A stretch of 59,663 nt of DNA from Myxococcales bacterium (lineage in GTDB: Bacteria > Myxococcota_A > Polyangia > Polyangiales > Polyangiaceae). Position 1 is the first letter of the stretch. Each line of letters opens with the position of its first letter. The translations under genes and the position numbers were made by a program. Positions 11,793 to 56,758 of the stretch are shown piece after piece. The stretch spans positions 1 through 59,663 of the forward strand of contig PMCK01000061.1 of the NCBI GenBank assembly GCA_003154095.1. The letters run 5' to 3'. Under the pieces are notes generated by a model. The model saw only the letters and a list, made by a program, of their open reading frames with translations. It did no database searches and was not told the DNA's origin.

Positions 11793-11887
11793 ACTCCCTT
11801 GGATGTACTTACTCGCCCGAAATGTCCTGCCTTCCCGCAATGCTGGTTTCAGAACAAAACGATTGTGTGGTAGGGACAGGCAGTCCT

Positions 11888-31964: not shown

Positions 31965-32657
31965 ATGGATCAGACGGAAACAACCGATGGCGTCGCGAAC
32001 TCCGATGCCGAGACAAAGATCGAAGCCGCCGAGGAGCGATGGTCTCGGCTTGAGAAGGTGGTACGCGGAATGGGCCGAGATAGCCTCACTGTCGCACGCG
32101 GCCAACAGGAAACGCAATCGGCGCTCGCAGCGATATCCGCGCGCATCGACGATCTAGATCTTGCCATCAAGGGGGTGTCGCAGACTGCATGGCGGGCGGC
32201 CCAAGAGCGGCTGGGGCAAGCACAGGAAATTGAGAAGCATTTCGCTGGCGCACTTCGGGAGCTCGAAAAGCGGATACGCGAGGAGCTCCTCTGGCAGATC
32301 CAGCGAAACGCTCTGCTAGCCATCTTTCCAGCGTTGGACGACATGGCACGCGTGGTTTCGCTACAGCGAGAACTTGTTGTCGCCAAAGGCAATGAAGATC
32401 CCTTTTTGGAGGCCATGGAACTTGTACACCACAAGGCCATCGAGGGGCTCCGTGCGTTCGGCATGGAAGAGATTTCGGTGGAGGTGGGAGTCACACGTTT
32501 CGATCCCGCGCTGCATGAGGCAAAAGAACTTGGGGAGACTGCAGCGGTGAGCGACAACGAAAGTGTCGCCTCTGGTACGATTATTGGCGTAGGCCGAACG
32601 GGTTATAAGATACAGGATCGCGTGTTCCGCGCGCCACAAGTTTTCGTGAAGCCCTAG
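31965..32657 (+). CDS. grpE: GrpE-family nucleotide exchange factor
   Basis: Coiled-coil N-terminus, then LLAIFPALDDMARV, GMEEISVEVGVTRFDPALHEA and GTIIGVGRTGYKIQDRVFRAPQVFV, the canonical GrpE C-terminal pattern. Confidence 0.8.
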   Translation: MDQTETTDGVANSDAETKIEAAEERWSRLEKVVRGMGRDSLTVARGQQETQSALAAISARIDDLDLAIKGVSQTAWRAAQERLGQAQEIEKHFAGALRELEKRIREELLWQIQRNALLAIFPALDDMARVVSLQRELVVAKGNEDPFLEAMELVHHKAIEGLRAFGMEEISVEVGVTRFDPALHEAKELGETAAVSDNESVASGTIIGVGRTGYKIQDRVFRAPQVFVKP

Positions 32658-32681
32658 CAACGAACGAGACAAGAGCAAAAT

Positions 32682-34622: not shown

Positions 34623-34638
34623 AGAGGGTGGTTCGAAA

Positions 34639-36291: not shown

Positions 36292-36308
36292 GCCTTTGGA
36301 GGAGCGGG

Positions 36309-38930
36309 ATGATGGAGAGAGTTCTGGCGTGTCTGTTCTTGGTTGGTACAACGTCAATGATTGCTGGAGGCTTGTGGGGTGCGCGCAAGTTAAATATTCC
36401 TTGGCAGTTTGAGGCCGCGATTATATTCGTCAATCTTCCGGCACTTCTAGTGCTCTTGGGCATTGCGAGAGGACGTCTGCGGCTCTCGAAGGGCTTACGA
36501 GCTCTCGCCTCTGCTGCGATCGCTGTCGCGGCCATGACCTGGGCAAATCACAAGCGGCACATGGCATGGCCGTTGGCCGTGGGATCAGGGTTGGCCGCCT
36601 TTTTTCTGTTGGTGGTCGTGTTCCGCCGCCGTGAAGCGCAAGGTGAGCTCGCACTTCGGCGTGCAAACAACGCTTTGCAGTCAGACAACCTCAATCCTGA
36701 CGAAGCAGTCGTAGCATTGGCCGAAGCTGAAGCCGCGTTCGGTGGCGAGGCGCCGATGGGCCAGCAAGCGCTTCTCGAGTGGCTGTCGGCGTCTGTCCAC
36801 GCAAACCTCGGAAACCTGACCCGTTCTGCGGTTCACGCCAACGAAGCGCTGCGACTATATCAAAGGCTCGGCCAGTCGCAAAGTGTAACCGTAGTGCGGG
36901 ATTTCATAAGTAAACTCAGTCAAAATGTGGCGACTCGGCAAACCGGGGGCCCAAGTTCGACAAAGGCCCTTCAGTATTCGACGCCGCTGGCGCTCTTCGG
37001 TGTGCTGACGGTGGGTGCGCTACTTGCGCTGTATGGAATGTGGTCGCCGGCGAGAGTGCAGCTCCCCACTCATATGCTTCTGGCAATTGGCATCGCGCTC
37101 GGCGTCTGGTTCCTCGGATTGCCTTGGTTCTTGGCCAAAGCTGAGCGAGTGACGGCGTCAACGATTGGGTTCATGTCTTTCAGCCTCGCTATACTTGGAA
37201 CGTTGATTTCGATTGCAGGAGTCGCCATCGAACACCATTGGCTAGCCTCCAACAATTTGCCGGCATTTATCCAAAAACCTTCGCAGGTTTTTCAAGAATG
37301 GCTAGGTCACCTGCCTTGGTGGATGCCCATCGCGGCCCTCGTCCTGTTCCTGTCGCTGGCATTGACCGCAGTCTTGCTACTGAAAGGTGGGTCAATCGAG
37401 AAGACGCTGGAAGCCGCCGAGCGCGAACTTCTTTCCGAGAAATGGGACCGCGCAATTACTATGCTGTTGGCGGTCGACGTTCGGCGCGAGCGAAATTTGG
37501 TGGCTAGAGCCCAAGTACTCTTCTGTCTCGCATTCGCGTATCGCATGTCGGGCGCGCATACCGAGGCGAAGGAGCGGTTAGCCGCTTTGCTCGACGCCTG
37601 CCCCGGGCATCACGAGGGACTCTACCTCGCCGGGTACTTGGCGAGCGATGCAGGCGAGCTTGACAGCGCAGCGTCATTCTGGCGTCGACTTTACGAAATC
37701 GACCCGACGTTTGGTCCGTCTCCCTCCGATCCTCATCGCACGGTCGCGTATTTTCTATCCGTCGTGCTGTATAGGAAGGCTCTCGGCCTGATGGCGACCC
37801 AACCCGAGGCAGGTGCAGAATTGTTGGCGGAGATTGGCGCCATCGGGGCGATGGATAAGATTCTTTCGAAGACGCTGGTTCGAGTGCATTGTCATCGCGG
37901 CACAGAACTGGTGCGCCAGCGACAGTGGCAAGCTGCGGAGAAGGAATTCGAACTCGCCAAACAGAAAGTCAGTGTCCTCGAGCCGACGGACAGCGAGCAC
38001 CGTGACACCAGGAAGCTCCAGGCGCTGTGCGAAGCTGGCCTCGGTATCGTTGCATTGAAGAAGGACAACCACGGGGCTGCCGTCAAAGGGTTCGTGAAAG
38101 CACGAGAAGTCATCAAAGACATGATCGGCGACGCGCATGCATTCGGTGGAGAAGAAGACCTTCTCGCCCAACTTCTCCGCGCTGCCGCGAGGAAACGCAG
38201 CGACGAGAACTCTATTGATCCCGCATTTGCACGCGACGCCAGTTTCTCAGCGGGAATCGCGCAGCTCGCCACATTAAGGCAACAACTCGAGCACAGTGCT
38301 ACTTGCGATTGGCGTAGCGCTCTTGCGGTTGCACAGCGGTCTTTTGAAGAGAGTCTCGAGGCGTCACCGATGTTCGCGGAAGGAGCCGCAATGCTGGGTC
38401 TCCTCTACTGCTATTGCGGGGCTAGTGCGGCAGAAAAAGCCAAGGGTCTCGAGCTCTTAAAGAAGGTTCAGGAACGGGTTGGGAGCAAGTTTGTTGTTGA
38501 GACCGTCGCGCAACAGGACGCCTCACAAAAGGATCATGCCGAGGCGCGAGACTCATATTTTCAAGCTTTTCAAGAGTACTTACGCTCGTCGAACGTCCCG
38601 AGGTCCGAACGTCAAAAAATGCGCGATGAAATGCTGGAACGAATGAAAGTAATGGGTCAGGACAAAGCCTTCATGGGTCGAGGTGGGCTCCAAATCGATC
38701 AAGACCGCGAACAGGAGCCAACCATCAAGGAATATCTAGCTCGCGCGGCCATGCTGCGAGCGAAGCTCATGAAACTCGGCACGGACGAGGGTAACCCGTT
38801 GAATGCAGAGCTCCGAATGCTATTGGAGGAACTAGGAAAGAAGAGTGAGGAACTCGAGTCGCACGCGCGCAGCGTCGTGGAAACGGAAAAGAAGATCATG
38901 CAACAAGCCCAAGCCTTGCTATTCAGCTGA
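36309..38930 (+). CDS. Polytopic membrane protein (4 TM - TPR insert - 4 TM) with ~480-aa C-terminal TPR domain
   Basis: GGAGGAG RBS. Hydrophobic helices include VLACLFLVGTTSMIAGGLWGA, AAIIFVNLPALLVLLGIA, WPLAVGSGLAAFFLLVVVF, LALFGVLTVGALLALYGMW, LLAIGIALGVWFLGLPWFLA, FMSFSLAILGTLISIAGVAI and PIAALVLFLSLALTAVLLL. Confidence 0.8.
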   Translation: MMERVLACLFLVGTTSMIAGGLWGARKLNIPWQFEAAIIFVNLPALLVLLGIARGRLRLSKGLRALASAAIAVAAMTWANHKRHMAWPLAVGSGLAAFFLLVVVFRRREAQGELALRRANNALQSDNLNPDEAVVALAEAEAAFGGEAPMGQQALLEWLSASVHANLGNLTRSAVHANEALRLYQRLGQSQSVTVVRDFISKLSQNVATRQTGGPSSTKALQYSTPLALFGVLTVGALLALYGMWSPARVQLPTHMLLAIGIALGVWFLGLPWFLAKAERVTASTIGFMSFSLAILGTLISIAGVAIEHHWLASNNLPAFIQKPSQVFQEWLGHLPWWMPIAALVLFLSLALTAVLLLKGGSIEKTLEAAERELLSEKWDRAITMLLAVDVRRERNLVARAQVLFCLAFAYRMSGAHTEAKERLAALLDACPGHHEGLYLAGYLASDAGELDSAASFWRRLYEIDPTFGPSPSDPHRTVAYFLSVVLYRKALGLMATQPEAGAELLAEIGAIGAMDKILSKTLVRVHCHRGTELVRQRQWQAAEKEFELAKQKVSVLEPTDSEHRDTRKLQALCEAGLGIVALKKDNHGAAVKGFVKAREVIKDMIGDAHAFGGEEDLLAQLLRAAARKRSDENSIDPAFARDASFSAGIAQLATLRQQLEHSATCDWRSALAVAQRSFEESLEASPMFAEGAAMLGLLYCYCGASAAEKAKGLELLKKVQERVGSKFVVETVAQQDASQKDHAEARDSYFQAFQEYLRSSNVPRSERQKMRDEMLERMKVMGQDKAFMGRGGLQIDQDREQEPTIKEYLARAAMLRAKLMKLGTDEGNPLNAELRMLLEELGKKSEELESHARSVVETEKKIMQQAQALLFS

Positions 38931-39155: not shown

Positions 39156-41387
39156 ATGCGACGAACGGCTCCGTTTCGTTTTTTGTTGTTGTTGTTTGTG
39201 ACGGCACTGGCAAGTTGTCATACGAAACCTGTCGCAGGTCCCCCAGTACCCAATAAGCCCGCGCCGGAGATCCATCGCAGTCTCCCGGCCGATTTCGTTG
39301 TTTGCATAGACGATTCGGGGAGCATCAGCCCGACGGAACAGGCTCTGGTGCGTGAAACCACGATGTTGCTCGCGGATCTCGCGGAGGAAGGCGATCAGGT
39401 TTCTGCAATAGCCTTCGGCACCGGAGCGCGAAAGGTCGCCGCCCAGCTGATCCGGACGGATGATGATCGACGCGCGTTCAAGGACGCCGTGCGCCAGACG
39501 CTCACATTCAAAGAACGCTCGTCTGACATCCGCGCCGGCCTCAAGCTTCTCGCTGAGGATAACTCGCCGTGGTTCCGCCCCAGCGGTGAGTCAATCCGTG
39601 TAGCCATCGTTCTGAGTGACGGAAAGCTCGAACCAGCCAATCGTGATGCCCGAGGCGCGCGCGATGAGATGGTAAAGCTTCTGCAGGGTCGCTTGTCCAA
39701 AGTGGATCTCTACAGCATCGTGCTCGGTAACCGAACCAGTCAGGAACCGATCCCGGGCCTGGAACCGATCACCGGAAACCAGCTCATGAAGGACGTGATC
39801 GGGCGATCGGATGATCGCTATTTCCAGGCGAGCCGACTCGATCAGCTTCTTGAAGACACAATGCTCATTCTTGAACGTGCCAAGGGAAGCGCGTCAATCG
39901 ATGAGCTGCATTCCACCAAGCTTCGCATTGATCGGAGCGTGGATTCGATGATGCTTGTCCTTCGTAAGCGATCGACGGACGGTTCCAGTCTGTGCAATTC
40001 GCTCGACATTCGTTTGAGAATGCCCGGAATCCAGGAACCTCTGAATTCGCGATCGACGCAATCCGGCGTCTACTGGTCTACCGATTACGAGTATTTTGAT
40101 CTGATCCGAATCCGTAAACCAAATGAGGGGATTTGGGAAGTCGCGCTCGCCAACGGCAAGAAGCCCGAGGTCCTGAGCAAGGTCGTTTCACCGTTGGACC
40201 TGCAATTTGCGGCGCGTAGCGTGTACTACCTCAACGAGCAAAGCGAGCTTGACGCTTGGATCTTCGACAAGTCGACCGGGTCGATTTCACAGCCAAAGGA
40301 AGGGCCTGTGTTTCGCATCCGGGCCGAGCATGGCGGCGGCCCGCAGGCAGGCGTATCGTCGCAACAACCACTCAACTTCAATTCTGAGACAGGCCACTAC
40401 ACCCTGGAGTTGCCGGGCGCGCTCGGTAAGAATCTGGGGATGCACCATTTCCGACTCGCCGCCGAAAGGCTTGAGTCGGTAGGTAGCACGAAGGCTGACC
40501 CGTGGTTCCTTCGACGGACAGGGCCAATCACCGTCAGCTTAGCGGAGCCATTCGTGAATTGGCGTGTAACACCAGAGCTTGCGACACGAGTACCCTTTCT
40601 GACTCGAATGTTGGCGGCCTGGCGGGCACCTGGCAGCTTGCCATTTGCCGATAAACTTTGGTGGCTTCCGTTTGGCGGCTCGCTACCCTCAGCGTCGTTC
40701 GGCGCCGATTGGGCGAGCACCGCGAAACTTGCGCCTGTATTCGAGATTCCTCCCACCGTGACGATTGAGCTGTCGAAGTTGGACGCTAGCAAGGGCAGCT
40801 TCCAGCCCCTCCTCACGGAAGCGTTGCCTAGTCCGACTGCCGAGCGTCGATACGACTTCACGACTAGCCTGTCCGAATCGGGTGCGTATCGTTATCGTTA
40901 CGTTCTTAATGGCACGACCGCGGATGGTCCGTTCAGCATAGTCAGTCCTTCCTATTCTTTTCGCGTTCGAACCGGCTGGGAGTACTGGATTCTTCTGTTA
41001 CTGGCGTTATTGGTGGTCGTCGATGTGGTGGGCAAGCGTACGGCAAAAATCAGCGGTTTCCTTCAAAGCACCGCTCCGCACCCTTGGATGACCGACTTGA
41101 CTTCACGTAGCTACGATAGCGCCTCAGCGGTCGCCGAAGCGCCGCACTTGGCCGGAGCACAAATCGTACTCAAGGCGACTCGCATGCTTTTCTTCTTTCG
41201 CAAGCGCATTCTTCTGACGGCACGGACCGGCACGCTCGAAATTGGAAGGGAAGTCATGGACGAGAATGGCGCAATGGTAGCCGAAATGATTGATGCACCT
41301 GGGCCGGGCAAAACTATTGCCTTGGAACCAGGAGAATATACAATTCGCGCAGGCAGTGTGCTCTTGACACTCAGCGCGTCAGTGTGA
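39156..41387 (+). CDS. vWA-domain lipoprotein with C-terminal TM anchor and ~110-aa cytoplasmic tail
   Basis: MRRTAPFRFLLLLFVTALASC (lipobox). MIDAS FVVCIDDSGSISPTE, then AIAFGTGA and VAIVLSDGKLEP. Late TM WEYWILLLLALLVVVDVVG. Confidence 0.85.
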   Translation: MRRTAPFRFLLLLFVTALASCHTKPVAGPPVPNKPAPEIHRSLPADFVVCIDDSGSISPTEQALVRETTMLLADLAEEGDQVSAIAFGTGARKVAAQLIRTDDDRRAFKDAVRQTLTFKERSSDIRAGLKLLAEDNSPWFRPSGESIRVAIVLSDGKLEPANRDARGARDEMVKLLQGRLSKVDLYSIVLGNRTSQEPIPGLEPITGNQLMKDVIGRSDDRYFQASRLDQLLEDTMLILERAKGSASIDELHSTKLRIDRSVDSMMLVLRKRSTDGSSLCNSLDIRLRMPGIQEPLNSRSTQSGVYWSTDYEYFDLIRIRKPNEGIWEVALANGKKPEVLSKVVSPLDLQFAARSVYYLNEQSELDAWIFDKSTGSISQPKEGPVFRIRAEHGGGPQAGVSSQQPLNFNSETGHYTLELPGALGKNLGMHHFRLAAERLESVGSTKADPWFLRRTGPITVSLAEPFVNWRVTPELATRVPFLTRMLAAWRAPGSLPFADKLWWLPFGGSLPSASFGADWASTAKLAPVFEIPPTVTIELSKLDASKGSFQPLLTEALPSPTAERRYDFTTSLSESGAYRYRYVLNGTTADGPFSIVSPSYSFRVRTGWEYWILLLLALLVVVDVVGKRTAKISGFLQSTAPHPWMTDLTSRSYDSASAVAEAPHLAGAQIVLKATRMLFFFRKRILLTARTGTLEIGREVMDENGAMVAEMIDAPGPGKTIALEPGEYTIRAGSVLLTLSASV

Positions 41388-44300
41388 AGTTCAACAACTG
41401 CAAGCGTGTGGGAAATTCGATGACCAAACCGATTTTTAGAAAGATAATGCTCGTAGGCCTTGGGGGCTCCGGGCAAAAGATCGTCTTAAACCTCAAGCGC
41501 CTACTAATCGATCTATACGGCGTGGTCCCTCCGTCGATCAAGATGCTGTGTCTGGATACTGACGTGCCCATGGAGGGTGCCGCATCAAATGTGCGCGAAT
41601 CGCGACATGGTTTTGATCCTCAAGAATTCTTGCACATCAAGGTGGAGCAGCCCGCCGTGTTTCTTCGCGAGTCGCCTGCCGTGGACCGCTGGTTCGTCAA
41701 ACCAGTCCCAATCGGAGCTATCACGAGTGGCGCTGGAGCCATCCGGCAGAACGGTCGTCTAGCTTTCTTCCACAATCTCCACGAAATCGCGCAGCGCATC
41801 GACACGATGAAGATTGCCCTGGGCGACGCGGCCCTTCCGCGACTGATGAATTCAGCCCGTACGGAATTGGGCGCCACCATGGACTTTGATCTCTCGCCGA
41901 AAGAGATGGAGGTCTACGTGTGTGGTTCTCTCGCTGGAGGCACAGGTAGCGGAACCTTTCTCGACATGGGGATCCTTTTGCGCGCCGAACTGCCTGGCGC
42001 GCTGATTCATGGGTTCTTCCTGCTCGACTGGCTGTACCGTCGCAACGCCTTTGCAAATCGCGTAGGAGGAAACGTATACGCCGCGTTGGCCGAACTCGAC
42101 AATCTGCAGTCGATTGTCTATGGATCTGAGCGATTCATCCCGTACGAAGTCGACTACGGAAAGAGGCACGTGAGTGTTACCCAGTCCCCCTACACACTCT
42201 TTCATGTCATTGACGGACGCAACGAGAACGGCGAAAACATCAATGATGTCAACCAGGTCACGGAAATCGTGGCGCGCGCAATATTCTTGTCCGTGGGATC
42301 AATGGGTCCGGCAGTAGCGAGTGTAGTCGACAACCTAATCAATCATATCAACGTCACTGGGCCCAAACTGTGGCAGGGCAAGTACGCACGCTACTCGAGC
42401 CTCGGGGTCAGTTCGCTAGTGTACCCGGCTCCAGAAAAGCATCGCCGGATTGCCGCCGAACAAGCGCTACGCCTGTGTGACGAGGCAATCGCCGAACTGG
42501 AAGGGGTTGCCGTAAAAGGGGATGACGGGACGAGCGCGGAAATCTCCGCGGATATCAAGAAGGTCCTCACACAGGCGGGCTACCCCGGTAATCCATTGGG
42601 CAATGCGGTCAGGCCCCGTTTGCGTACGTTCGTGTACCCCAAACTGACGTCGTCCGATCTAGCCGACGGCGTGTTTCCCACAAACGTGACGAACAAGCAA
42701 CGTGGCATCGAATCGCAAATCCAAAACGCGGTCGAAAATGTGTTCGCTGCGGTTGGTACTAACGTCGTGCAGACCGCTCACGGGGCGTTCCGCGACAGGA
42801 TCGCACAACTCGACGCGAACGCTAATGTGAGTGCTGCGTACCGAAAACAGTGGGTCGAGCAGGCCGTGGCAGAGCTGCAGGACCTGCATCAGGCGGCGGC
42901 AGCAGCCGAGCAAGAGGCCCAAACATCTCTGTCGGCGGCTAGGGCCAGGGCGAGCGAGCATCTTGCAACAGCACAAAAGCTACCGATGACGTGGTACGGA
43001 GGGCGGCGAAAGGGGGCCGCCGAGAAGTGGCGCGTGGCGGTAGGTCAGGTGTTGACGGCGTTTCGCGACGGGCTTGTAGCTGCTTACGAACGCGGCGTCT
43101 TGAAGTCCGGTCCGGAGTCGCAGACCAAGGGGCTGATTGATCTGCTGACGGAGCAAGCGCAGGGCTCAGTGCCCAAGGCTTCGCAGATCGTCGAGCTTCT
43201 AAGGACCGCACGGGCGGACCTCGATGGGCAATTGCGCATTGCTCGGCGCGAGGTGGACGCAATCCAGTCGAACGTAACAAACGTCGTCATCGGACGTGAT
43301 GGGATCGTGGTTCCCGGCGAATTTATTGAACAGCTCCGACCGTCGGGGGAGATCACGAGTGCCCCGGGCGACAGGAGATCGACCCTGATCAATTTGAGCC
43401 TACAGCGGTTTAAGGAGGAATCCAAGGTCTATGTCGTCGACGACTACCTCAAGAGGTCCGAAGGCAGCGCTGAAAAACTCGCGGGATTATTCAGTCACTA
43501 TGCTAAACAACGGCTCGCGCCGTTGGCATTCGTGGATATCCATGCTGCCATGAAGTTTCACGCGGACGTGCAGGGGGTAGAATTGAACGACTTCTTGCGC
43601 GAGCAGTTCAGTCACATGGTGAGGTTAGCGTCTCCCCTATGGACATACACAAAGGCGATGCTGGACGCGACCCGCAGGCCTCACTACGATCGAGTCGTCA
43701 ACATTGGAGTCCATGATGGACAGGCGAAATCTAGCTATGAACAGATAATCAAAGCTTCCATGGCACGGTTTGGCATCGGCGTCGAACCCGCATTTACAGA
43801 AGTGGGCGACCCGTATCGAATTTGGTTCCTCAATTACGCCGCTGCCTTGCCCGCATATATGTTAGAGACCGTCGAAGAGAATCGCTCCGAGTACGAGACT
43901 GAGATACTGCCGCCGTATCACTTAGATCGCTACTTCGAAACTGCAGTGCCCGATCTATATCCACACGATGACCGCGATAACATTACGCTGCGGATTCTTG
44001 GAATGGCGATTATTCCGGGGGTCGACATCATCTGTGACGAAAAGCTGAGCAAGGGTCACAAGTATACCTGCTCTGATCCTGAAATACAAAAACGCAACGG
44101 GAACGAGCGGCTCGTGTGGCTTGATTTTCGAACGATGTACGACGACGTCCGTACGAATACGGAGCTGCTCGACGGTTTGATCACCGCCCTGCGGCAACGT
44201 ATGAATTCCTTATCGCGCGACGACGCGAAGCCCGCAATTCAAGGTCATATCGAGCGCGTTCGGGCGAAACTCGAGCATCGCGATTTTTCGAAACTGGTGA

Positions 44301-44404
44301 GCGCGCGGTTGACCTATCAAGAAATCGCAGCGCTGGAGTCCTTCCTGTCGATGGGCCGCGGAGGCTTCCGCATGGAACTGGAACGATACATCAGCGGCAA
44401 CTAA
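41384..44404 (+). CDS. Giant (about 1000 aa) tubulin/FtsZ-superfamily GTPase-like protein (Tubulin_2-like)
   Basis: GTG 41384 overlaps the vWA stop (GTGA); alternative ATG at 41420. IMLVGLGGSGQKIV (T1-like) and VCGSLAGGTGSGTFLDMGILLR (tubulin signature GGTGSG). Confidence 0.8.
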   Translation: MKFNNCKRVGNSMTKPIFRKIMLVGLGGSGQKIVLNLKRLLIDLYGVVPPSIKMLCLDTDVPMEGAASNVRESRHGFDPQEFLHIKVEQPAVFLRESPAVDRWFVKPVPIGAITSGAGAIRQNGRLAFFHNLHEIAQRIDTMKIALGDAALPRLMNSARTELGATMDFDLSPKEMEVYVCGSLAGGTGSGTFLDMGILLRAELPGALIHGFFLLDWLYRRNAFANRVGGNVYAALAELDNLQSIVYGSERFIPYEVDYGKRHVSVTQSPYTLFHVIDGRNENGENINDVNQVTEIVARAIFLSVGSMGPAVASVVDNLINHINVTGPKLWQGKYARYSSLGVSSLVYPAPEKHRRIAAEQALRLCDEAIAELEGVAVKGDDGTSAEISADIKKVLTQAGYPGNPLGNAVRPRLRTFVYPKLTSSDLADGVFPTNVTNKQRGIESQIQNAVENVFAAVGTNVVQTAHGAFRDRIAQLDANANVSAAYRKQWVEQAVAELQDLHQAAAAAEQEAQTSLSAARARASEHLATAQKLPMTWYGGRRKGAAEKWRVAVGQVLTAFRDGLVAAYERGVLKSGPESQTKGLIDLLTEQAQGSVPKASQIVELLRTARADLDGQLRIARREVDAIQSNVTNVVIGRDGIVVPGEFIEQLRPSGEITSAPGDRRSTLINLSLQRFKEESKVYVVDDYLKRSEGSAEKLAGLFSHYAKQRLAPLAFVDIHAAMKFHADVQGVELNDFLREQFSHMVRLASPLWTYTKAMLDATRRPHYDRVVNIGVHDGQAKSSYEQIIKASMARFGIGVEPAFTEVGDPYRIWFLNYAAALPAYMLETVEENRSEYETEILPPYHLDRYFETAVPDLYPHDDRDNITLRILGMAIIPGVDIICDEKLSKGHKYTCSDPEIQKRNGNERLVWLDFRTMYDDVRTNTELLDGLITALRQRMNSLSRDDAKPAIQGHIERVRAKLEHRDFSKLVSARLTYQEIAALESFLSMGRGGFRMELERYISGN

Positions 44405-44479: not shown

Positions 44480-45919
44480 ATGAACATAGAAAAGCGTATC
44501 GCGGAATTCGAGAACATACTAGAAGAGCGCGTGCTGTGTGATCCAAGCAAAGCAGCTATAGACAAACACAATGCACTCGCAAAGGCCTTCGAACAATGGC
44601 AGCACGAGGAGACTAGGCGCATCGAGGCTGACAAAGCAGTGCTCAAGACTCGTACAGATCAGCTCGATGAGTTCGACAGCCAAATCGATACGCTAAGGAA
44701 GGGTCTGCCTACTGAACCATCCACGGGCTCGGTACCTTCGGCAAATGATGCAGCCGTAAATGAAATAAATAGTCGGATTCGCCAACGCAATACGCTTGTC
44801 GACGACATTCATTTGTCGCAGCAAGCATACAACAAGCGAATTGTTGAATTCAACGCCGAGCAATCTCGGCGCGGGCGCGAGATCGACGAGCAGCGAGATA
44901 GGCTTAAACTGGAGGTCGATGCGCATAACCGGTGGCAGCAGCAAGATGGTATTTCTACACTGAGCCGCAACATCAACGATCTCTATGGACAACTCCACCG
45001 CGAGGCGCGCACGAGCCCAGTCGAGGCCATCACCCTGGAACCTTTCATCCGCCGACTGCGTCGAATGCGAAACGAGCTTGGTCTCAAGGCCCAACAAGAA
45101 GAGGCCAGCAAGGAGACGGGGCTCCTGGTCGTTCGATGCTCGTTAGGCGCAGACGAAGATTCCAAAGCGCCCCGCGAAGAGGCTTTTATGTGCGTCGACA
45201 ATGCATCGTCCCTGACGATATTAACGAGGGAAATGGTTGACGTTCTTGGGATCGGCAGCTTTGTCGGGGAAGAGGTCGAACTCACACTGGTCAACAGAAT
45301 CAAACTGCGCGCACCCCAAGTACTTCTGCCGAGCGCGTCAGTGGACGGCTGCGAAGCCAAGTACGTGAAGGCCGTGATATTGGACGAAATGTCGCCCGGA
45401 ATAAGTGGGATTCTCGGCCTAAGTTTTCTGTCACGCTTCGATTTCGTCGTTGAAAAACACAAGCCGCAGAGGCTCACGTTGAAAGGGCGCACACACGACG
45501 ACGATGATGCGTTCGATGTTTTCATCTGCCACAAAAGCGAGGATGCGGAATACGGCAGGGCCGTCTATGATCTCCTGGTCAAGGCCGACTATAGAGTCTT
45601 TTTCAGTGCGGCCGCGAGGGGTAGCGGAGAATTCCAGCAGGCTATCGATAAAGCGCTCGAAACGTCGACTTATATGGTTGTCGTCACCTCGTCGGAGAGT
45701 CACGTGCTTAAGCCCTGGGTCCAGACGGAATGGAGAATGTTCGACGGCATGATTCGGGAACGGAGAGACGGCGGAAAGAAGCGCCGTAGTATCGTGCCCG
45801 TCCTCTGTGGAAGCATGGAACGGAGCAGTCTTCCGATGGCGCTTCGAAGATTTGAAATGGTGGAATTCTCTCAGGACGGATGGGGAACAAAGTTACTGAA
45901 CCTACTGCGTCGTGGCTGA
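44480..45919 (+). CDS. Coiled-coil - retropepsin-like (clan AA) domain with DNA in place of D(T/S)G - C-terminal TIR
   Basis: The N-terminal ~200 aa are coiled-coil. FMCVDNASSLTILTREMVDVLGI ... ISGILGLSFLSRFDFVVE (retropepsin-like). FDVFICHKSEDAEYGRAVYDLLVKADYRVFFS...MVVVTSSESHVLKPWVQTEWRMF (TIR). Confidence 0.75.
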   Translation: MNIEKRIAEFENILEERVLCDPSKAAIDKHNALAKAFEQWQHEETRRIEADKAVLKTRTDQLDEFDSQIDTLRKGLPTEPSTGSVPSANDAAVNEINSRIRQRNTLVDDIHLSQQAYNKRIVEFNAEQSRRGREIDEQRDRLKLEVDAHNRWQQQDGISTLSRNINDLYGQLHREARTSPVEAITLEPFIRRLRRMRNELGLKAQQEEASKETGLLVVRCSLGADEDSKAPREEAFMCVDNASSLTILTREMVDVLGIGSFVGEEVELTLVNRIKLRAPQVLLPSASVDGCEAKYVKAVILDEMSPGISGILGLSFLSRFDFVVEKHKPQRLTLKGRTHDDDDAFDVFICHKSEDAEYGRAVYDLLVKADYRVFFSAAARGSGEFQQAIDKALETSTYMVVVTSSESHVLKPWVQTEWRMFDGMIRERRDGGKKRRSIVPVLCGSMERSSLPMALRRFEMVEFSQDGWGTKLLNLLRRG

Positions 45920-45934
45920 AAGAGGTAGCGGATC

Positions 45935-48658
45935 ATGAATCAGATCTCAAGCGACTTGCAAGCGCTGATGAACGAGTTTTCGAATGAGCAACCGGGGTAC
46001 TGTAGTTACAAGAATTTCCTGGAAAGCGTGCTACAAAGGGCGTGCATGCGCTTCGACCCGCTTGCCATCGTGCAAGCGCGAGTCAAAAAAGCGAGGTCCT
46101 TCGCCGAGAAGTGTGTCCGCAAAAAGTACGAGGAGCCGTTCAAAAGAATGACCGACCTCTGCGGCGCGAGGGTCATCGTTCGATCCAAACACACGGTGCC
46201 CCTGGTAGGGCGATTCATCCGCGACAATTTCCTTGTCGACGAGGCCAATAGCGCCGACATGGCTGGACGACTGGGAGCCGCTGAATTCGGATACGGCTCT
46301 CTGCACCTTGTCGTTCAGGTTCCCGAAGACATCGAAAGCCCCTCTCAAGCCAAGATAAGGCGCAATGGCCTCCCTTTGACGGGCCAGGAGAGGCAATGGC
46401 TTAAGGAGCTCAATCAAGGCCACCCTAGAAAAGCGGAGATCCAAGTACGCACACTCTTGCAGCACGTCTGGGCCGACGTCGTGCACGACCGCATTTACAA
46501 AACCAAGCTAAGAATACCTCCACGCTATGCACGTGTGGCGTCACGTCTTGCAGCCCTGCTCGAGGAGGCTGACAACAGTTTGGGCTCGTTGAGCGAATCG
46601 ATTGACGCTTACCAGGTGGACTACGGCGCCCACATGACGAAAAACCAGCTAGCTGATGAATTCAGTACGCTTCAGCTGCTTGCTAGAATGGCTGAGTCGA
46701 ACTTCAACTCGACGCCAACACCTAGTCGAGCCGAGGTTGACTCGGGGCCACGCGTGCCGTCAATCCAAGAAGTGGACTCGGCCGAAATAGCGACTCTGCA
46801 AGATCGAGGGGAGCTAGCCTTGCGGCTGGCGAAGGTAGCGAAATCAGCAGGCGATTGGGACAGTGTTATCGAAGTATCGGAACCGTTCCTCGCTCGCGCC
46901 GAGATCCTAGAGCGCGACGAATTGAGGCTCGAACATGGCTACGCCCTGTGCAAAAGACACGAGGAACATCCACTTGGTCCCGAATTCAAGCGGGGTTGCG
47001 ACGAACTACGCAAAGTCAAAGATGAGCCCGCGCTTGAGCGCACGGAACTCAAGGCGCGAGCTCTGGCCGCGCTCGCCTGGTCCGAACGCAAGCGTGCGCA
47101 GCCCGCTTCGCTTCGAGAAGCGCGCAATCTTAACCGTGAAGCCCACGCTTGTTCGCCGGGAAATCCATATATCCTCAAGGAATTCCTCGAATGCGAGCTG
47201 CGTTTGACTCAGAGGGTCGAGTCTATCGATCTGCTTGGACCAGAAATAGTGCGTGCAGTCGAAAAATGTGCCGAGCATGCGGAAGTAGGTATCGAACTCC
47301 CTTATGCCCACTTTACAAGTGGAAAGTTAAATGTGCTCGCCAAGCGAACGCAAGAGGGAATGCTTGCTTACGTGCGAGGAATTGCAAGTAGCAGCACTTC
47401 CTATGCTCTCGAGGAAGAGCTGGCATCCGTCGAAGCACTCGAAGACAGTCTTGGTAGCGACCTCAGGCAGCTGGAACAGGTTCGTCTTCTATTGCTCCTA
47501 GGCATTGCCGCCAAGGAGCACGTCGGCCTCAAAAGCAGGATTAATGTCAGGGAAAAGCTGGAGGCGACGTTTGATTGTGTCTTCGATCGCGTGACAAGAC
47601 TCAGAGGGTCAGAACTGCTTCCCAGCTTGACGCCGCTAACGCCGCCCATCATTGCCGTTGTAGGGGGAGCCGCCGCGCGGTTCGAGATCGAGATCGAGCC
47701 ATATCGCGAAATGCTCCGACACGCGTGCTTTCAATTCAAAGGGACAGTCTTTTCGGGTGGCACCATGCAGGGCATCCCCGGACACGTCGGAGAGATTGCA
47801 AAGGACGCGGCACAAGGGGGAAAGCTACAAGCATTTGCATACATTCCGCGCCTGCTACCCGAGGATGCCACACCACACGACGGCTATCGCGTGTTCGTCA
47901 TCGAGGGAACGGAAGGTTTCACGTATCGCGAACCCATGCAGAGTTGGGCCCATGTGCTGTTGTCCGGAGCGAGTCCCAAGGACGTTCGCATACTTGGCAT
48001 TGGAGGCGGACCAATAGCAAAATTTGAATTCCACCTGGGACTTGCCCTGGGAGCCACGGTCGGCATTCTGGCCAACAGCGGTCGCGCTAGTGAGGAGCTT
48101 CTCAAGGAAGAACCCTGGTGGCCAGCCGGCGCGGTACTCGCTCTACCCAATGATCGGAATGTTGTGCGAGCGTTCCTCCATTCGGGTGAACTGCCGTCCC
48201 TCAACACGTCGCCAGTAAGCACCGCCTACCTACCAGCAGCAAAAAAGGTGCACGATTTCTTTGTGCAGGACTCGCAGGCCCAGCAGGAGCCCGCTAGCTG
48301 GGAATCCCTTTCGCCCGATTTTCAATTGTCCAACATTCATCAGGCTATTTATGCCGAGAAGATACTCCGTGGCTGCGGATTCACGGTACACAAGCGGGTG
48401 GCAGACAGCAGCCCCGTCCTATCATTCGAGACCAATGAGATCGAGAGGATGGCGGCCATGGAACATGGGCGCTGGGTCTTCGAACGCCTACGTCAGGGTT
48501 GGCGTTACGGAGCGGTCCGTGACAACACCAAGAAAGTGCACCCACTGCTAGTTGGTTGGGAGCAACTCCCCCTCGTGGAGCAAGAGAAGGATCGTAACGC
48601 AGTGCGCCGCTTTCCAGAAGTGCTACGGGAAGCTGGGTTCGAAATTAGTAGGGTATGA
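45935..48658 (+). CDS. RelA/SpoT-homologue synthetase domain - helical/TPR region - SLOG (LOG/TRPM-N-like) domain - RyR domain
   Basis: RVKKARSFAEKCVRKK, MTDLCGARVIVRS and AEIQVRTLLQHVWADVVHDRIYK (RSH synthetase). IIAVVGGAA...VFSGGTMQGIPGHVGE...ILGIGGGPIAKFEFHLGLALGATVGILANSGRAS (SLOG). IERMAAMEHGRWVFERLRQGWRYG...KVHPLLVGWEQLPLVEQEKDRNAVRRFPEVLREAGFEI (RyR). Confidence 0.85.
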   Translation: MNQISSDLQALMNEFSNEQPGYCSYKNFLESVLQRACMRFDPLAIVQARVKKARSFAEKCVRKKYEEPFKRMTDLCGARVIVRSKHTVPLVGRFIRDNFLVDEANSADMAGRLGAAEFGYGSLHLVVQVPEDIESPSQAKIRRNGLPLTGQERQWLKELNQGHPRKAEIQVRTLLQHVWADVVHDRIYKTKLRIPPRYARVASRLAALLEEADNSLGSLSESIDAYQVDYGAHMTKNQLADEFSTLQLLARMAESNFNSTPTPSRAEVDSGPRVPSIQEVDSAEIATLQDRGELALRLAKVAKSAGDWDSVIEVSEPFLARAEILERDELRLEHGYALCKRHEEHPLGPEFKRGCDELRKVKDEPALERTELKARALAALAWSERKRAQPASLREARNLNREAHACSPGNPYILKEFLECELRLTQRVESIDLLGPEIVRAVEKCAEHAEVGIELPYAHFTSGKLNVLAKRTQEGMLAYVRGIASSSTSYALEEELASVEALEDSLGSDLRQLEQVRLLLLLGIAAKEHVGLKSRINVREKLEATFDCVFDRVTRLRGSELLPSLTPLTPPIIAVVGGAAARFEIEIEPYREMLRHACFQFKGTVFSGGTMQGIPGHVGEIAKDAAQGGKLQAFAYIPRLLPEDATPHDGYRVFVIEGTEGFTYREPMQSWAHVLLSGASPKDVRILGIGGGPIAKFEFHLGLALGATVGILANSGRASEELLKEEPWWPAGAVLALPNDRNVVRAFLHSGELPSLNTSPVSTAYLPAAKKVHDFFVQDSQAQQEPASWESLSPDFQLSNIHQAIYAEKILRGCGFTVHKRVADSSPVLSFETNEIERMAAMEHGRWVFERLRQGWRYGAVRDNTKKVHPLLVGWEQLPLVEQEKDRNAVRRFPEVLREAGFEISRV

Positions 48659-53630: not shown

Positions 53631-53728
53631 ACTTCCTCTCAACTTGGCACCAAAGTCGCTCCCTCAGCGATTCTCACGTTACACCACAATTCCGTGCTTG
53701 CCTGACAATTTCTTGGTAAGACTAACCC

Positions 53729-54190
53729 ATGGTAACCACGCTCCTGGATGCAATCAAGTTGGCCATTGAATGCCATGATAATGCGCTCGATAAAGAAGGA
53801 ATGGAACCATACATATTGCATTCGTTACGCGTAATGCTCCGGCAAAATACGGACCACTCACGCATGGCTGCAGTCCTACACGATACACTCGAAAACTCAG
53901 GATTGACGGCGGAGCAGTTAAGTGAGCGCGGCTACCCTGAACCCGTGATCGAAGCATTACGCCTACTCACCAGAACTTCACCCGACGACTATGATAACTA
54001 CATAGATAACCTCGCGACAAACCCAATCGCGCGCAAAGTGAAGCTAGCCGACCTTGAAGACAACATGAACGTCACACGGCTACGTTCACTGGACAAACAC
54101 GCGCACAACCGACTCGATAAATACCTCCGATCTTGGTGGAAGCTGCGTGCCATCGATATGGAAAGTGACACTCAGCCGGGAAGAGCTTAG
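53729..54190 (+). CDS. Small HD-domain protein of the RelA/SpoT hydrolase type (small alarmone hydrolase-like)
   Basis: AIECHDNALDKEGMEPYILHSLRVM, MAAVLHDTLENSGLTAEQL, VIEALRLLTR and KVKLADLEDNMN follow the H..(x)..PY..H / LHD..E(D) / KlAD..dN pattern. The usual ED pair reads EN here. Confidence 0.75.
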   Translation: MVTTLLDAIKLAIECHDNALDKEGMEPYILHSLRVMLRQNTDHSRMAAVLHDTLENSGLTAEQLSERGYPEPVIEALRLLTRTSPDDYDNYIDNLATNPIARKVKLADLEDNMNVTRLRSLDKHAHNRLDKYLRSWWKLRAIDMESDTQPGRA

Positions 54191-56690: not shown

Positions 56691-56758
56691 AAGCAGGACG
56701 ATGCCGATCGATGATATCTGACAGCCTTGCGATCATTGCCAGCTGCGTGATTTCAGTC

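Follow-up and report, generated by a model that had tools for sequence, protein, structure and literature searches.

Here, we identified a fusion of a RelA/SpoT-type (RSH) synthetase domain, a TRPM-like SLOG domain and tandem RyR repeats that looks like a new effector for TIR-based (Thoeris-like) immune signalling. The gene (45935..48658, + strand, ATG start, 907 aa) lies in a 59,663-nucleotide stretch of a Myxococcales contig (PMCK01000061.1; this whole stretch is referred to as the window), and its domains follow in the order RSH, helical repeat, SLOG and tandem RyR. An earlier note on this DNA had placed the open reading frame (ORF) at these positions, as the terminal gene of an operon and with these three domains. 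The translation indeed contains every motif quoted there, and the gene ends a same-strand chain, a convergent RHS gene ending 7 nt past its stop. RSH, SLOG and RyR were all found to be real by Pfam, family profile and AlphaFold2 (AF2)/Foldseek analyses, and the full-length AF2 model of the 907-aa protein reached a pLDDT of 83.5 and a pTM of 0.77. The identical gene in identical gene order was present in approximately 10 independently assembled contigs. Fragments from peat metatranscriptomes matched it at 100% identity, and one of them crossed the junction between the stop of the upstream TIR gene and the start of the RSH gene, which indicates in situ transcription there.

The neighbouring TIR gene (44480..45919, +), separated from the RSH gene by a gap of 15 bp, encodes a 479-aa protein with a coiled coil, a retropepsin-like Asp-protease domain and a C-terminal TIR_2 domain identified by Pfam. 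Alignment to the NADase AbTIR revealed that the catalytic Glu motif is kept (KDWTNYE versus KPWVQTE), and this conserved Glu suggests that the operon TIR is catalytically competent. The same Asp-protease-TIR architecture was observed beside RSH genes in L095, the P0126 context, L109, L112 and L115. Preceding it are genes for a 1006-aa Tubulin_2 (tubulin/FtsZ-like GTPase) protein (41384..44404, +; Pfam E 7.5e-50) and a 743-aa vWA-domain protein detected by Pfam (39156..41387, +), which is always paired with the tubulin-like gene. The head of the chain (31965..38930, +) is formed by genes for GrpE, Hsp70, a kinase-like protein with TPR and an 873-aa TPR protein (Pfam and PADLOC kinase-like matches). 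These chaperone, kinase-like and TPR genes are window-specific additions; Hsp70 recurs near three related loci. Considering the 15-bp gap, the RNA fragment across the junction and the recurrence in homolog loci, the TIR gene and an effector with a predicted signal-binding domain belong to one operon, as in Thoeris-type systems.

A reverse search anchored on the tubulin-like protein found RSH-SLOG genes in all 10 non-redundant loci that had a close homolog of it (eight with full flanks, the context of homolog P0126 and the window itself), and the Asp-protease-TIR protein was common to five of these 10, the window included. The sub-lineage of the window always adjoins the vWA/tubulin-like module, usually together with a TIR protein. 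The RSH-SLOG family as a whole comprises at least 500 homologs, and its distribution is patchy, at the level of metagenome-assembled genomes (MAGs), spanning many free-living phyla. We examined the neighbourhoods of 83 homolog loci, all of which came from MAGs or metagenomes and relied on crude ORF calls. A TIR or DUF4062 gene was located within 10 kb in 50 of them (TIR_2 in 35/83 and DUF4062 in 22/83), within 1 kb on the same strand in 24/83 and within 100 bp in 10/83, and the TIR genes were often translationally coupled with gaps of 14-25 bp; the other 33 loci (~40%) lacked such a gene within 10 kb. Pfam validation of 72 neighbouring TIR/DUF4062 domains yielded 48 TIR_2 and 23 DUF4062 domains, with a Glu that was nearly invariant across the 72. 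According to a Thoeris survey, TIR signalling systems are present in ~8% of whole genomes (10.64898/2025.12.03.692087), and relative to this prevalence TIR/DUF4062 genes are enriched about five-fold or more at the homolog loci. Hence, the functional tie between RSH and TIR that had been supposed from the window alone is backed by a conserved gene neighbourhood. Further neighbours include additional RyR-domain proteins (TrkA_N-RyR and AAA-RyR) in 24 loci, integrase, transposase and STAND genes that give the loci a defence-island character, and sometimes sigma-54 activators and response regulators.

The RelA/SpoT-type synthetase (pyrophosphokinase) domain occupies aa 1-230 (45935..46624, +). Pfam RelA_SpoT (PF04607) matched residues 49-191 with an E-value of 3.6e-14 and 53.4 bits (curated cutoff 27). 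All of the RSH motifs are present and vary little or not at all among 29 homologs, including RxKxxxSxxxK (R49/K51..S55..K59), DxxGxR (D74-L-C-G77-A-R79), GYxSxH (G119-Y120-x-S-x-H124) and ExQxRT (E168-I-Q170-V-R172-T173); K51, K59, R62, D74, G77, R79, G119, Y120, H124, E168, Q170, R172 and T173 are strictly invariant. Judged from these residues, the protein belongs to the RSH superfamily synthetases and its active site is intact. When the family profile of this domain was searched against PDB, RelP/RelQ were the best matches (E 1e-19 to 7e-14), followed by CapRel (7ztb, E 3.6e-7) and FaRel2 (E 0.13), and Tas1 was undetected. RelP and RelQ are non-toxic housekeeping small alarmone synthetases (SAS). 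Assignment to the toxic SAS (toxSAS) by the nearest validated toxic subfamily was rejected, as RelP/RelQ are closer than CapRel, FaRel2 and Tas1. Thus, toxicity of the RSH domain is a property that we infer.

The RSH domain is followed by a TPR-like helical-repeat linker or scaffold of ~310 aa (aa 236-545; 46640..47569, +), which forms ~13 helices in the full-length AF2 model and at whose position TPR Pfam families score in many homologs. Next is a SLOG domain of the LSDAT/TRPM type (aa 570-750; 47642..48184, +) with the G-rich loops GGTMQGIPG and GIGGGPIAKFE; G577, G609, G613, G691 and G692 are invariant in the family alignment of 29 homologs. The window protein alone matched LSDAT_prok below the threshold (E 0.017 and 14.8 bits, cutoff 25.4). 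However, three further results establish the SLOG call: a precomputed PF18171 match exists for many homologs; the family profile of residues 560-745 matched TRPM2 MHR1/2 best in PDB (6co7, E 0.0099); and the AF2 model of the domain (pLDDT 93.9) retrieved only TRPM channel N-termini (MHR1/2) among its top 31 Foldseek matches in PDB, the best being 8srh (E 4e-7, probability 1.0, TMq ~0.62) and the next after TRPM being a LOG-like protein. On this modelled fold, a Rossmann-like alpha/beta fold, we assign the domain to the LSDAT (TRPM-like) family. TRPM2 MHR1/2 binds ADPR.

The C-terminal RyR module appears in the models and alignments as a tandem pair. The canonical repeat (aa 833-906; 48431..48652, +) was found by Pfam RyR (PF02026; residues 836-905, E 4.4e-12, above cutoff) and by a PDB RyR repeat match (E 4e-21). 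The degenerate first repeat (aa 760-820; 48212..48394, +) was recognized from alignment, HMM columns, its helix-helix-strand unit in the full-length AF2 model and a two-repeat consensus that is also found in the RyR partner proteins; in this repeat H773 is invariant and the D117-equivalent is N. RyR domains have recently been shown to bind, or to cleave, the TIR signals 2'/3'cADPR; in RyDEP, the cADPR contacts are H75, W78, H100 and D117 (PMC13232231). The equivalents of these residues in the canonical repeat are H844, W847, H869 and D886, with identical spacing (3/22/17). H844 and D886 are conserved in 29/29 homologs and W847 is aromatic in 29/29; at position 869, nine homologs have H and 20 have S. 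The SLOG of ThsA also binds 3'cADPR (10.64898/2025.12.03.692087). Owing to the cADPR-binding precedent and the conserved contact residues, we consider by analogy that RyR and SLOG are equally good candidates for the sensor. The earlier proposal of SLOG as the sensor therefore stands with regard to the domain itself, but not to its role as the sole sensor. On the other hand, RSH-SLOG variants without RyR exist, and therefore SLOG is the constant partner of the synthetase.

The commonest partner of the family is a MutT-like NUDIX (MutT/NudG type, not NUDT9-like), adjacent or fused in 53/83 loci and absent from the window. A second type is represented by the ORF at 53729..54190 (+, 153 aa), for which the suggested HD hydrolase identity proved right: it matched Aph1 in PDB (7smg) with an E-value of 2.7e-31 over 136 aa, and is an Aph1-like small alarmone hydrolase of the HD type, with (p)ppApp as its probable substrate; the Pfam scan gave no HD call for this ORF. 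The Aph signature consists of D24, R96, D116, R119, K133 and Y134 (PMC10083569). The window hydrolase keeps D24, R119, K133, Y134 and N114, with N at both R96 and D116; D24 and R119 are both validated specificity residues. The homolog in locus L096 keeps D24, D116, R119, K133 and Y134, and in L014/L094 and L096 homologs of the window hydrolase lie next to an RSH or RyR gene. Aph1-like or HD_4 hydrolases were present in five loci (the window, L014, L096, L007 and the P0126 context), with a preference for loci without NUDIX (4/5 versus 20/88; Fisher p = 0.015, post hoc). In RSH-SLOG loci, a small HD hydrolase tends to take the place of NUDIX. The link between the Aph1-like gene and the RSH gene in the window is circumstantial, because the former is outside the operon, 5 kb away and beyond the convergent RHS gene. 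It is a candidate reset or immunity enzyme.

On balance, we lean toward the view that the fusion protein is a ligand-gated RelA/SpoT-family pyrophosphokinase which a TIR-based (Thoeris-like) conflict system uses as an effector. An insult would be detected by the vWA/tubulin-like GTPase module (here also Hsp70/GrpE/TPR) or by STAND proteins, which would switch on the TIR protein to make from NAD+ a signal derived from ADPR, which may be a cADPR isomer. Binding of this signal to SLOG and/or the RyR module may relieve an autoinhibition exerted via the helical repeats, and the RSH domain would then move pyrophosphate from ATP to the 3'-OH of a nucleotide, causing growth arrest or ATP drain. As the linked hydrolase is Aph1-like, the product in the window lineage is most likely (p)ppApp, with (p)ppGpp as the alternative. 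The NUDIX or HD hydrolase would destroy this product and thereby set a threshold or reset the system. Instead of the product, NUDIX might just as well break down the ADPR-type signal, and the RyR module might be a signal-degrading enzyme rather than a sensor. The Thoeris-like relay of the earlier note is thus supported in outline by the domains and the TIR neighbourhood, but not in SLOG as the only sensor or in a kinship with toxSAS. The complete two-tier cascade, in which a TIR signal acts on a SLOG+RyR receptor and an RSH alarmone, probably (p)ppApp, brings about arrest, gated by tubulin-like/vWA(/Hsp70) proteins and buffered by NUDIX/Aph1, is put forward tentatively, and as a whole it is rather unlikely to hold in every step.

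Some of the same observations could be accommodated by a non-immune alarmone synthetase whose SLOG and RyR domains sense endogenous NAD+/ADPR metabolites, with NUDIX for turnover and the TIR/STAND genes incidental or regulatory. A family that is spread over many free-living phyla, has its RSH domain nearest to housekeeping SAS, lacks a nearby TIR in 40% of loci and occasionally adjoins sigma-54 activators or response regulators would fit such a role, as would the diverse, non-toxin contexts of Aph1 homologs (PMC10083569). However, the enrichment of TIR/DUF4062 over whole genomes, the strict co-occurrence with a conflict-type vWA/tubulin module and a patchy MAG-level distribution with integrases and transposases close by make it unlikely. 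The island character of the loci (integrase, transposase and STAND genes) could also be expected of a CapRel-like fused toxin-sensor, in which the TPR/SLOG/RyR region holds the RSH domain inactive until a phage protein binds the helical repeats and triggers pyrophosphorylation of tRNA 3'-CCA ends, the TIRs being independent island genes. CapRel is found by the family profile, the RSH region gives a match to the PADLOC candidate PDC-S33, and in both proteins an N-terminal RSH domain is fused to a long C-terminal region. The 3'-pyrophosphate of tRNA is reportedly removable by small alarmone hydrolases, a result ascribed to Kurata et al. 2021. We regard this explanation as improbable in view of the far better scores of RelP/RelQ than of CapRel or FaRel2, the two domains of small-molecule-binding type with conserved predicted ligand-contact residues, the frequent translational coupling of TIR genes and partner hydrolases that are MutT-like NUDIX or Aph1-like proteins of a (p)ppApp-specific family.

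The relay may also run in a different order, either with RSH adding a 3'-pyrophosphate to the TIR product or another ADPR/NAD-derived nucleotide and so making a new signal that is read by the neighbouring RyR proteins, or with RyR as a glycosidase that ends the signal and SLOG as the sole sensor. The extra RyR-domain proteins in 24 loci could be such readers, a MutT-like NUDIX could cleave pyrophosphorylated ADPR species, and adenosine 3'-OH groups are known targets of RSH enzymes (Tas1 and FaRel; PMC7229694); the catalytic dyad H75/D117 of RyDEP is kept as H844/D886 in 29/29 homologs. Nevertheless, RSH action on ADPR-type acceptors is without precedent, RyDEP homologs sharing these residues mostly bind without cleavage (PMC13232231), and the Aph1-like partners suggest (p)ppApp itself as the product, which leaves this arrangement improbable as well.

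If the favoured reading, a TIR-gated pyrophosphokinase, is true, TIR signalling would gain alarmone synthesis as a further output besides NAD+ depletion, membrane pores, proteases and nucleases, and the stringent-response enzyme family would be linked to Thoeris-type immunity. It would also offer a physiological setting for (p)ppApp and for the widespread but context-less Aph hydrolases, and assign a defined effector to an uncharacterised tubulin-like/vWA module that occurs in many environmental phyla. Moreover, host RyR domains would be receptors of TIR signals, mirroring the RyDEP sponges and glycosidases of phages.

Among the known systems, type I Thoeris (SIR2-SLOG ThsA with the TIR protein ThsB) is similar in that a TIR gene lies beside an effector combining a SLOG sensor and an enzyme in one polypeptide. 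The output of ThsA is a SIR2 NADase, whereas here it is an RSH pyrophosphokinase; the present SLOG is an LSDAT/TRPM-type domain and is accompanied by tandem RyR and ~310 aa of helical repeats, a NUDIX or HD hydrolase (for product or signal) is a conserved extra, and the loci are often vWA/tubulin- or STAND-rich. Within its accessible part, the 2025 Thoeris survey lists no RSH-SLOG-RyR effector among its 29 effector types (10.64898/2025.12.03.692087). The toxSAS (FaRel/ATfaRel, CapRel, and Tas1/Apk with Aph1) share an RSH domain with a potentially neutralising enzyme gene (SAH/Aph1-type), (p)ppApp as a plausible toxic product and, for CapRel, the fused architecture and an autoinhibition that is predicted here. 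Such a gene is NUDIX (adjacent or fused) in 53/83 loci and HD in five, with none adjacent in the window. However, this RSH domain is nearest to RelP/RelQ and not to any validated toxSAS, its usual partner is a MutT-like NUDIX, of which there is no mention in the 2020 toxSAS survey (PMC7229694), and its predicted control is by a small-molecule ligand and not by an antitoxin or phage capsid.

The operon also shares a tubulin homolog, vWA, HSP70+GrpE, TPR and a kinase with the NTP-dependent conflict systems (Kaur et al. 2020, PMC7159879), in which TIR and, rarely, RelA are effector or nucleotide-generating modules. The described tubulin/HSP70 systems centre on GAP1-type TRAFAC GTPases with FNIII-repeat proteins (PMC7159879). 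A Pfam scan of all window operon proteins detected neither TRAFAC GTPase nor FNIII, and a GAP1/DO-GTPase-centred tubulin-HSP70 system was therefore rejected; the cassette of vWA-Tubulin_2-X, TIR, RSH-SLOG(-RyR) and NUDIX/HD is not described in PMC7159879.

RyDEP and other PF02026 proteins (PMC13232231) have the same Pfam domain and the same four residues with identical spacing, and a two-fold unit is common to both, as a homodimer in RyDEP and as a tandem repeat here. However, RyDEP is a viral protein that stands alone and counters defence as an enzyme or sponge, whereas the present RyR module is host-encoded and effector-fused and would be a defence-side receptor or a built-in signal terminator. 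In TRPM2, MHR1/2 SLOG is combined with the NUDIX domain NUDT9-H; the present SLOG is structurally closest to TRPM MHR1/2, and SLOG and NUDIX are again partners, here as separate genes, although in a soluble bacterial enzyme rather than an ion channel and with a MutT-like, not NUDT9-like, NUDIX. The RyR repeat is similarly homologous to the adenine-nucleotide-binding Repeat12 (R12) of the ryanodine receptor. If the two-tier cascade holds, one bacterial polypeptide would unite the ancestors of two ligand modules of animal Ca2+ channels that are related to ADPR/cADPR, TRPM2 MHR1/2 and RyR Repeat12, and this pair in one soluble protein provides a simple test system for ADPR/cADPR recognition by TRPM2 and ryanodine receptor domains, and would be a tractable model for asking if RyR repeats are genuine cADPR receptors.

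The open reading frame at 45935-48658 (+) starts with ATG, comprises 907 codons and contains in its translation every motif that the earlier note had quoted for a RelA/SpoT (RSH) synthetase fused to SLOG and RyR domains. All three domains could be substantiated: RelA_SpoT and RyR scored above the Pfam cutoffs, and the SLOG domain was recovered with a family profile and a fold search using an AlphaFold2 (AF2) model. The RelA_SpoT match (aa 49-191, E 3.6e-14) exceeded its curated cutoff, and the synthetase motifs (K51, K59, R62; D74-x-x-G77-x-R79; G119-Y120-x-x-x-H124; E168-x-Q170-x-R172-T173) are invariant in an alignment of 29 family sequences with 34-44% identity. When a family profile of the RSH domain was compared with PDB, RelP/RelQ-type small alarmone synthetases (SAS) ranked first (E 1e-19 to 7e-14), followed by CapRel (3.6e-7), long Rel/RelA proteins (1e-3 and weaker) and FaRel2 (0.13); Tas1 was not detected among the PDB RSH proteins. 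Because of the invariant motifs and these matches to solved RSH proteins, the enzyme is very probably catalytically active. By homology, its RSH domain groups with housekeeping SAS enzymes and with no experimentally validated toxic subfamily.

The full-length AF2 model (pLDDT 83.5, pTM 0.77) has four parts, namely an alpha/beta RSH domain (aa 1-230), helical repeats (aa 236-545), the SLOG domain (aa 570-750) and two successive helix-helix-strand units of RyR type (aa 760-820 and 833-906). The repeats expected behind the RSH domain are indeed modelled as paired helices, and homologs score TPR families there, but they cover about 310 aa rather than the 350 aa first estimated. In the window protein alone, the LSDAT_prok/SLOG match was sub-threshold (E 0.017, 14.8 bits vs the Pfam cutoff of 25.4), and among full-length relatives, of which the protein collection has more than 120, about a third carry a precomputed PF18171 match. 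A profile of aa 560-745 built from 23 sequences found its best PDB matches in the N-terminal MHR1/2 of TRPM2 (6co7, E 0.0099; 7aov, 0.041), and other TRPM2 and TRPM8 entries aligned at the same site. With an AF2 model of the region (pLDDT 93.9, pTM 0.90), the 31 best Foldseek matches in PDB were all TRPM channels, followed by the LOG-like protein 1rcu. ADP-ribose-bound TRPM2 structures were among the best structural relatives, such as the TRPM2 chanzyme with ADP-ribose (8srh; E 4e-7, probability 1.0, TMq ~0.62), and we take the MHR1/2 region itself to be the ADP-ribose-binding site in those structures. Based on the homolog PF18171 matches, the profile comparison and the Foldseek results, the SLOG/LOG-like assignment holds, and the domain is a SLOG domain of LSDAT/TRPM type. 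According to a 2025 Thoeris survey (10.64898/2025.12.03.692087), 3'cADPR, which TIR enzymes make, is bound by the SLOG domain of ThsA.

The C-terminal RyR domain (Pfam, aa 836-905, E 4.4e-12, above the curated cutoff) was likewise upheld by solved structures, including a RyR1 repeat chimera (E 4e-21) and the bacterial single-repeat proteins 3nrt and 6uag (~1e-10). Unit 833-906 is a canonical RyR repeat and is preceded by a degenerate one at 760-820, with invariant H773, an aromatic residue at +3 and N replacing the catalytic-type D; the C-terminus is thus a tandem RyR pair, like the Repeat12 domain of ryanodine receptors. In a May 2026 preprint (PMC13232231), phage PF02026 RyR-domain proteins were reported to cleave 2'/3'cADPR (RyDEP) or to bind them with nanomolar affinity, signal binding being seen in six of the eight RyR homologs assayed. 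The RyDEP unit is two-fold symmetric, and its contact residues H75, W78, H100 and D117 are said to be conserved across PF02026 (PMC13232231). Their equivalents in the window protein are H844, W847, H869 and D886, with spacings (3, 22, 17) identical to those of RyDEP. All 29 sequences carry H844, D886 and an aromatic residue at position 847, and position 869 is split between H (9) and S (20); canonical repeats in neighbouring RyR-domain proteins show similar conservation. We considered that RyR might be a homotypic adaptor common to the partner proteins; the RyDEP data favour a shared-ligand sensor, which would be more parsimonious.

As claimed previously, the RSH gene is terminal: the same-strand chain closes with it, and 7 nt further on lies the end of a convergent RHS gene. 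Directly upstream, separated by 15 bp, lies the gene for a 479-aa Asp-protease-TIR protein (44480..45919, +), whose TIR domain keeps the catalytic-Glu motif of the NADase AbTIR (KDWTNYE vs KPWVQTE). The identical RSH protein and gene order were found on ~10 independently assembled contigs from peat metagenomes and the NCBI MAG GCA_003159065.1. Fragments assembled from two peat metatranscriptomes match both genes, TIR and RSH, internally at 100% identity; one equally identical fragment (45814-45964) runs from the end of TIR (stop codon at 45919) into the beginning of RSH (45935). Both this fragment and the short gap agree with co-transcription of TIR and RSH, at very low depth and with DNA carry-over possible. 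A scan for promoters and terminators around the RSH gene gave counts within shuffle expectation.

RSH-SLOG-RyR proteins form a deep and populous family. Relatives are encoded in at least ~500 stretches of species-representative genomes; the 80 best of these are full-length without exception, come from MAGs only and belong to Planctomycetota, Kiritimatiellia, Desulfobacterota, Acidobacteriota, Chloroflexota, Bacteroidota, KSB1, Gemmatimonadota and Bathyarchaeia. The archaeal Bathyarchaeia contribute three MAGs (loci L060, L067 and L085). For a census of neighbours, ORFs called in 83 non-redundant loci were grouped into clusters. Iterated HMMs placed a TIR domain within 10 kb in 35 of the 83 loci and an N-terminal DUF4062 domain, in most cases as part of a STAND-WD40/TPR protein, in 22 (union 50); TIR signalling systems are present in ~8% of whole bacterial genomes according to the 2025 survey (10.64898/2025.12.03.692087). 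A TIR or DUF4062 gene lies on the same strand within 1 kb in 24/83 loci and within 100 bp in 10/83. A Pfam check of 72 domain matches gave 48 TIR_2 and 23 DUF4062, 13 matches also hitting ThsB_TIR. Directly downstream of the RSH gene, a ~950-1000-aa TIR protein recurs, with N-terminal TIR_2 in L011, L018, L047 and L072, and with internal TIR_2 preceded by ankyrin repeats in L007.

The commonest partner in the 83 loci is a ~140-aa NUDIX protein with an intact NUDIX box, located directly upstream (29 loci), directly downstream (23) or elsewhere within 10 kb (10), or fused (1). In the fusion (L075, 9611-12526) it forms the N-terminus of the RSH-SLOG-RyR protein. No NUDIX was found in any frame of the window. 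Reading the NUDIX protein as an ADPR-signal hydrolase, by analogy with NUDT9-H of TRPM2, was not adopted and stays as part of a rival; its best matches are of the MutT/NudG/NudI type (3grn, E 1.5e-19; NCBIfam MutT, pyrimidine dNTP diphosphatase) and not ADPRases; a proline 15-16 residues after the NUDIX box is the marker invoked for that reading. Further RyR-domain proteins, in which RyR is joined to a TrkA_N/RCK-type Rossmann domain or to AAA/AAA_16, occur in 24 loci. The P0126 contig encodes a 313-aa reverse transcriptase (RVT_1) fused to RyR (1140-2081) in the same island as its RSH-SLOG/TIR/HD_4 cassette, which may be another host-side RyR fusion reading TIR signals. In three unrelated loci (L003, L005 and L086), a sigma-54-dependent transcriptional activator and a ClpB-like AAA_2 gene lie upstream of the NUDIX-RSH pair, which hints at sigma-54-controlled expression in that clade.

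Homologs of the GrpE, Hsp70, TPR, vWA and tubulin-like genes of the window were present in only 0-1 of 85 RSH-anchored loci, and the Hsp70/vWA/tubulin operon had been considered fortuitous context. A reverse search anchored on the tubulin-like protein (41384..44404, +; Tubulin_2, E 7.5e-50; a large family of its own) overturned this, the association being strict in the sub-lineage of the window; the RSH-anchored census had missed the module because the best 80 genome loci sampled a NUDIX-type clade. All three sampled tubulin-homolog contexts contain an RSH gene. L095 has vWA, tubulin and a ~800-aa protein, with convergent Asp-protease-TIR (504 aa) and then RelA_SpoT+RyR (976 aa). In P0126, an HD_4 hydrolase, RelA_SpoT-TPR-LSDAT (682 aa, no RyR) and Asp-protease-TIR (479 aa) are divergent from vWA-tubulin, and L096 shows the order DUF4062-NACHT-TPR, vWA-like, tubulin, the ~800-aa protein, RelA_SpoT-TPR-RyR (900 aa) and a 144-aa gene. 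A metagenome scan with the tubulin alignment gave 11 loci (8 non-redundant) with a close full-length homolog and full flanks, every one encoding an RSH+SLOG protein. Recurrent layouts are RSH-SLOG (690-720 aa, no RyR), vWA, tubulin, protein X, Asp-protease-TIR and NUDIX (L109, L112, L115), and vWA, tubulin, X and RSH-SLOG-RyR with convergent TIR and then NUDIX (L105 group). Hsp70 homologs lie near three of the tubulin-anchored loci. Since the RyR-less proteins of P0126, L109, L112 and L115 retain SLOG, it is SLOG that constantly accompanies the RSH domain, and RyR is a frequent addition. Protein X (~800 aa, no Pfam match; e.g. L096, 12964-15387) always follows the tubulin-like gene in L095-L115 and is absent from the window; there, vWA/tubulin is preceded by GrpE, Hsp70 and two TPR proteins, one kinase-like and one of 873 aa. 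The window is thus a variant of a recurrent cassette of vWA/tubulin, TIR, RSH-SLOG(-RyR) and a hydrolase.

In the window, the candidate for that hydrolase is the 153-aa HD protein at 53729-54190 (+) pointed out in the earlier note. It has no significant Pfam match, and an initial doubt (a spurious Pfam match only) was dropped after a PDB sequence search, which returned the "(p)ppApp hydrolase" 7smg (E 2.7e-31 over 136 residues), with Rel/SpoT hydrolase domains and SAHs matching more weakly. The 7smg protein is Aph1, the founding (p)ppApp-specific HD hydrolase, whose specificity signature is D24, R96, D116, R119, K133 and Y134 and whose D24R/R119A double mutant gains ppGpp activity (PMC10083569). 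Of the signature, the window protein keeps D24, R119, K133 and Y134 and has N in place of both R96 and D116; N114, which contacts the ribose, is conserved too. Small HD hydrolase homologs were found in four other family loci: in L014/L094 the Aph1-like gene overlaps the end of an AAA_16+RyR gene beside DUF4062-NACHT proteins, in L096 it has the full signature and overlaps the RSH stop, in L007 an HD_4 gene belongs to the same-strand array NUDIX, TIR, RSH, TIR, HD_4, TIR, and in P0126 HD_4 is directly upstream of the RSH gene. NUDIX is absent from 4/5 loci with an HD hydrolase vs 20/88 without (Fisher p = 0.015; small numbers, post hoc), which suggests that NUDIX and HD hydrolases stand in for each other in a single function, the simplest being to hydrolyse the RSH product. 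This also hints that the product may be (p)ppApp, at least in the window lineage; in the window itself, the Aph1-like gene lies 5 kb off beyond the convergent RHS gene.

On balance, we lean towards the RSH protein being an RSH effector gated by a TIR signal; each single step set out below is less certain than this core claim. A sensing module of NTPases and chaperones (vWA, tubulin-like GTPase, Hsp70/GrpE and TPR proteins in the window; STAND proteins with DUF4062 or TIR heads in other loci) would switch on the TIR enzyme, which would make an ADPR-derived signal. Binding of the signal to SLOG and/or RyR could free RSH from autoinhibition relayed by the helical repeats, and the alarmone then made, (p)ppApp being favoured and (p)ppGpp possible, would cause growth arrest. 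The NUDIX or HD hydrolase would supply a threshold or reset, and neighbouring RyR-domain proteins may be parallel effectors reading the same signal.

Three other explanations were weighed against this one. A physiological nucleotide-responsive alarmone synthetase with no immune role would suit the likeness to housekeeping SAS enzymes and is less easily reconciled with so many TIR and DUF4062 neighbours; we consider it unlikely. The same likeness tells against a CapRel-like tRNA pyrophosphokinase that senses phage directly, for which the CapRel profile match could be cited, and this we regard as decidedly unlikely. The least probable is a relay with another order of steps: RSH would act on an ADPR-type nucleotide, or the RyR module would be a glycosidase that ends the signal. 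Cleavage by RyDEP and the retained contact residues would fit the glycosidase, and most RyDEP homologs with these residues bind the signals and do not cleave them.

In its logic of a TIR protein and a SLOG effector, the system resembles type I Thoeris; it differs in output domain, SLOG subtype, the added RyR pair, the hydrolase partner and the vWA/tubulin embedding. RelA_SpoT, RyR and LSDAT are absent from the main text and the consulted supplementary tables of the 2025 Thoeris survey (10.64898/2025.12.03.692087), and NUDIX, RyR and TPR are unmentioned in the toxSAS survey (PMC7229694). Kaur et al. 2020 (PMC7159879) described tubulin/HSP70/GrpE/vWA conflict systems with rare RelA effector domains; their defining GAP1-type GTPase and FNIII components were not detected by Pfam in the window operon. 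PADLOC had no model for the vWA (39156..41387, +) or tubulin genes, and only the candidate PDC-S33 touched the RSH domain. No TIR-RSH system was found in the literature searched; the NAR SLOG paper of Burroughs et al. 2015, which reportedly defined LSDAT and may already list the RSH-SLOG-RyR architecture, lay outside that search. From these comparisons, we rate the system as a putative TIR-signalling defence with an alarmone-synthetase effector, its mechanism being proposed.

The window is a large conflict island, with a DUF4062-headed protein and two further TIR proteins. The former (1048 aa) is encoded at 4799-7945 (+), and the latter are a 626-aa protein with N-terminal TIR (11822-13702, +) and a 1117-aa TIR + beta-propeller protein (23307-26660, +). 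An NHL-repeat protein (26657-27820) and a 1234-aa TPR protein (27817-31521) follow, and the run joins the GrpE/Hsp70 chain, which starts with a 136-aa ORF without family match (31529-31939, +). The 550-aa 'TPR' protein at 34639-36291 (+) has a ~280-aa N-terminal region without Pfam match, where the PADLOC models PD-T4-6 and MkoA, presumably protein-kinase-like, both match, which points to a divergent kinase joined to TPRs. Sister contigs have a called 70-aa gene (L088, 3007-3219) that lies between the genes for the 873-aa TPR protein and the vWA protein (~38941-39153, +). The convergent RHS/YD-repeat protein (48666-53642, -; 1658 aa) is oddly built: after an N-terminal TM/signal segment come RHS repeats that end in a DPxGL-like motif near residue 500, then proline-rich stretches and a long middle part without annotation, and RHS repeats return at the very C-terminus; no obvious immunity gene follows it, and an RHS gene also flanks L096. 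The stretch 54487-58462 (-), beyond the Aph1-like ORF, has a radical-SAM gene (55530-56690) between unannotated 348-aa and 567-aa genes, an arrangement kept on all sister contigs.
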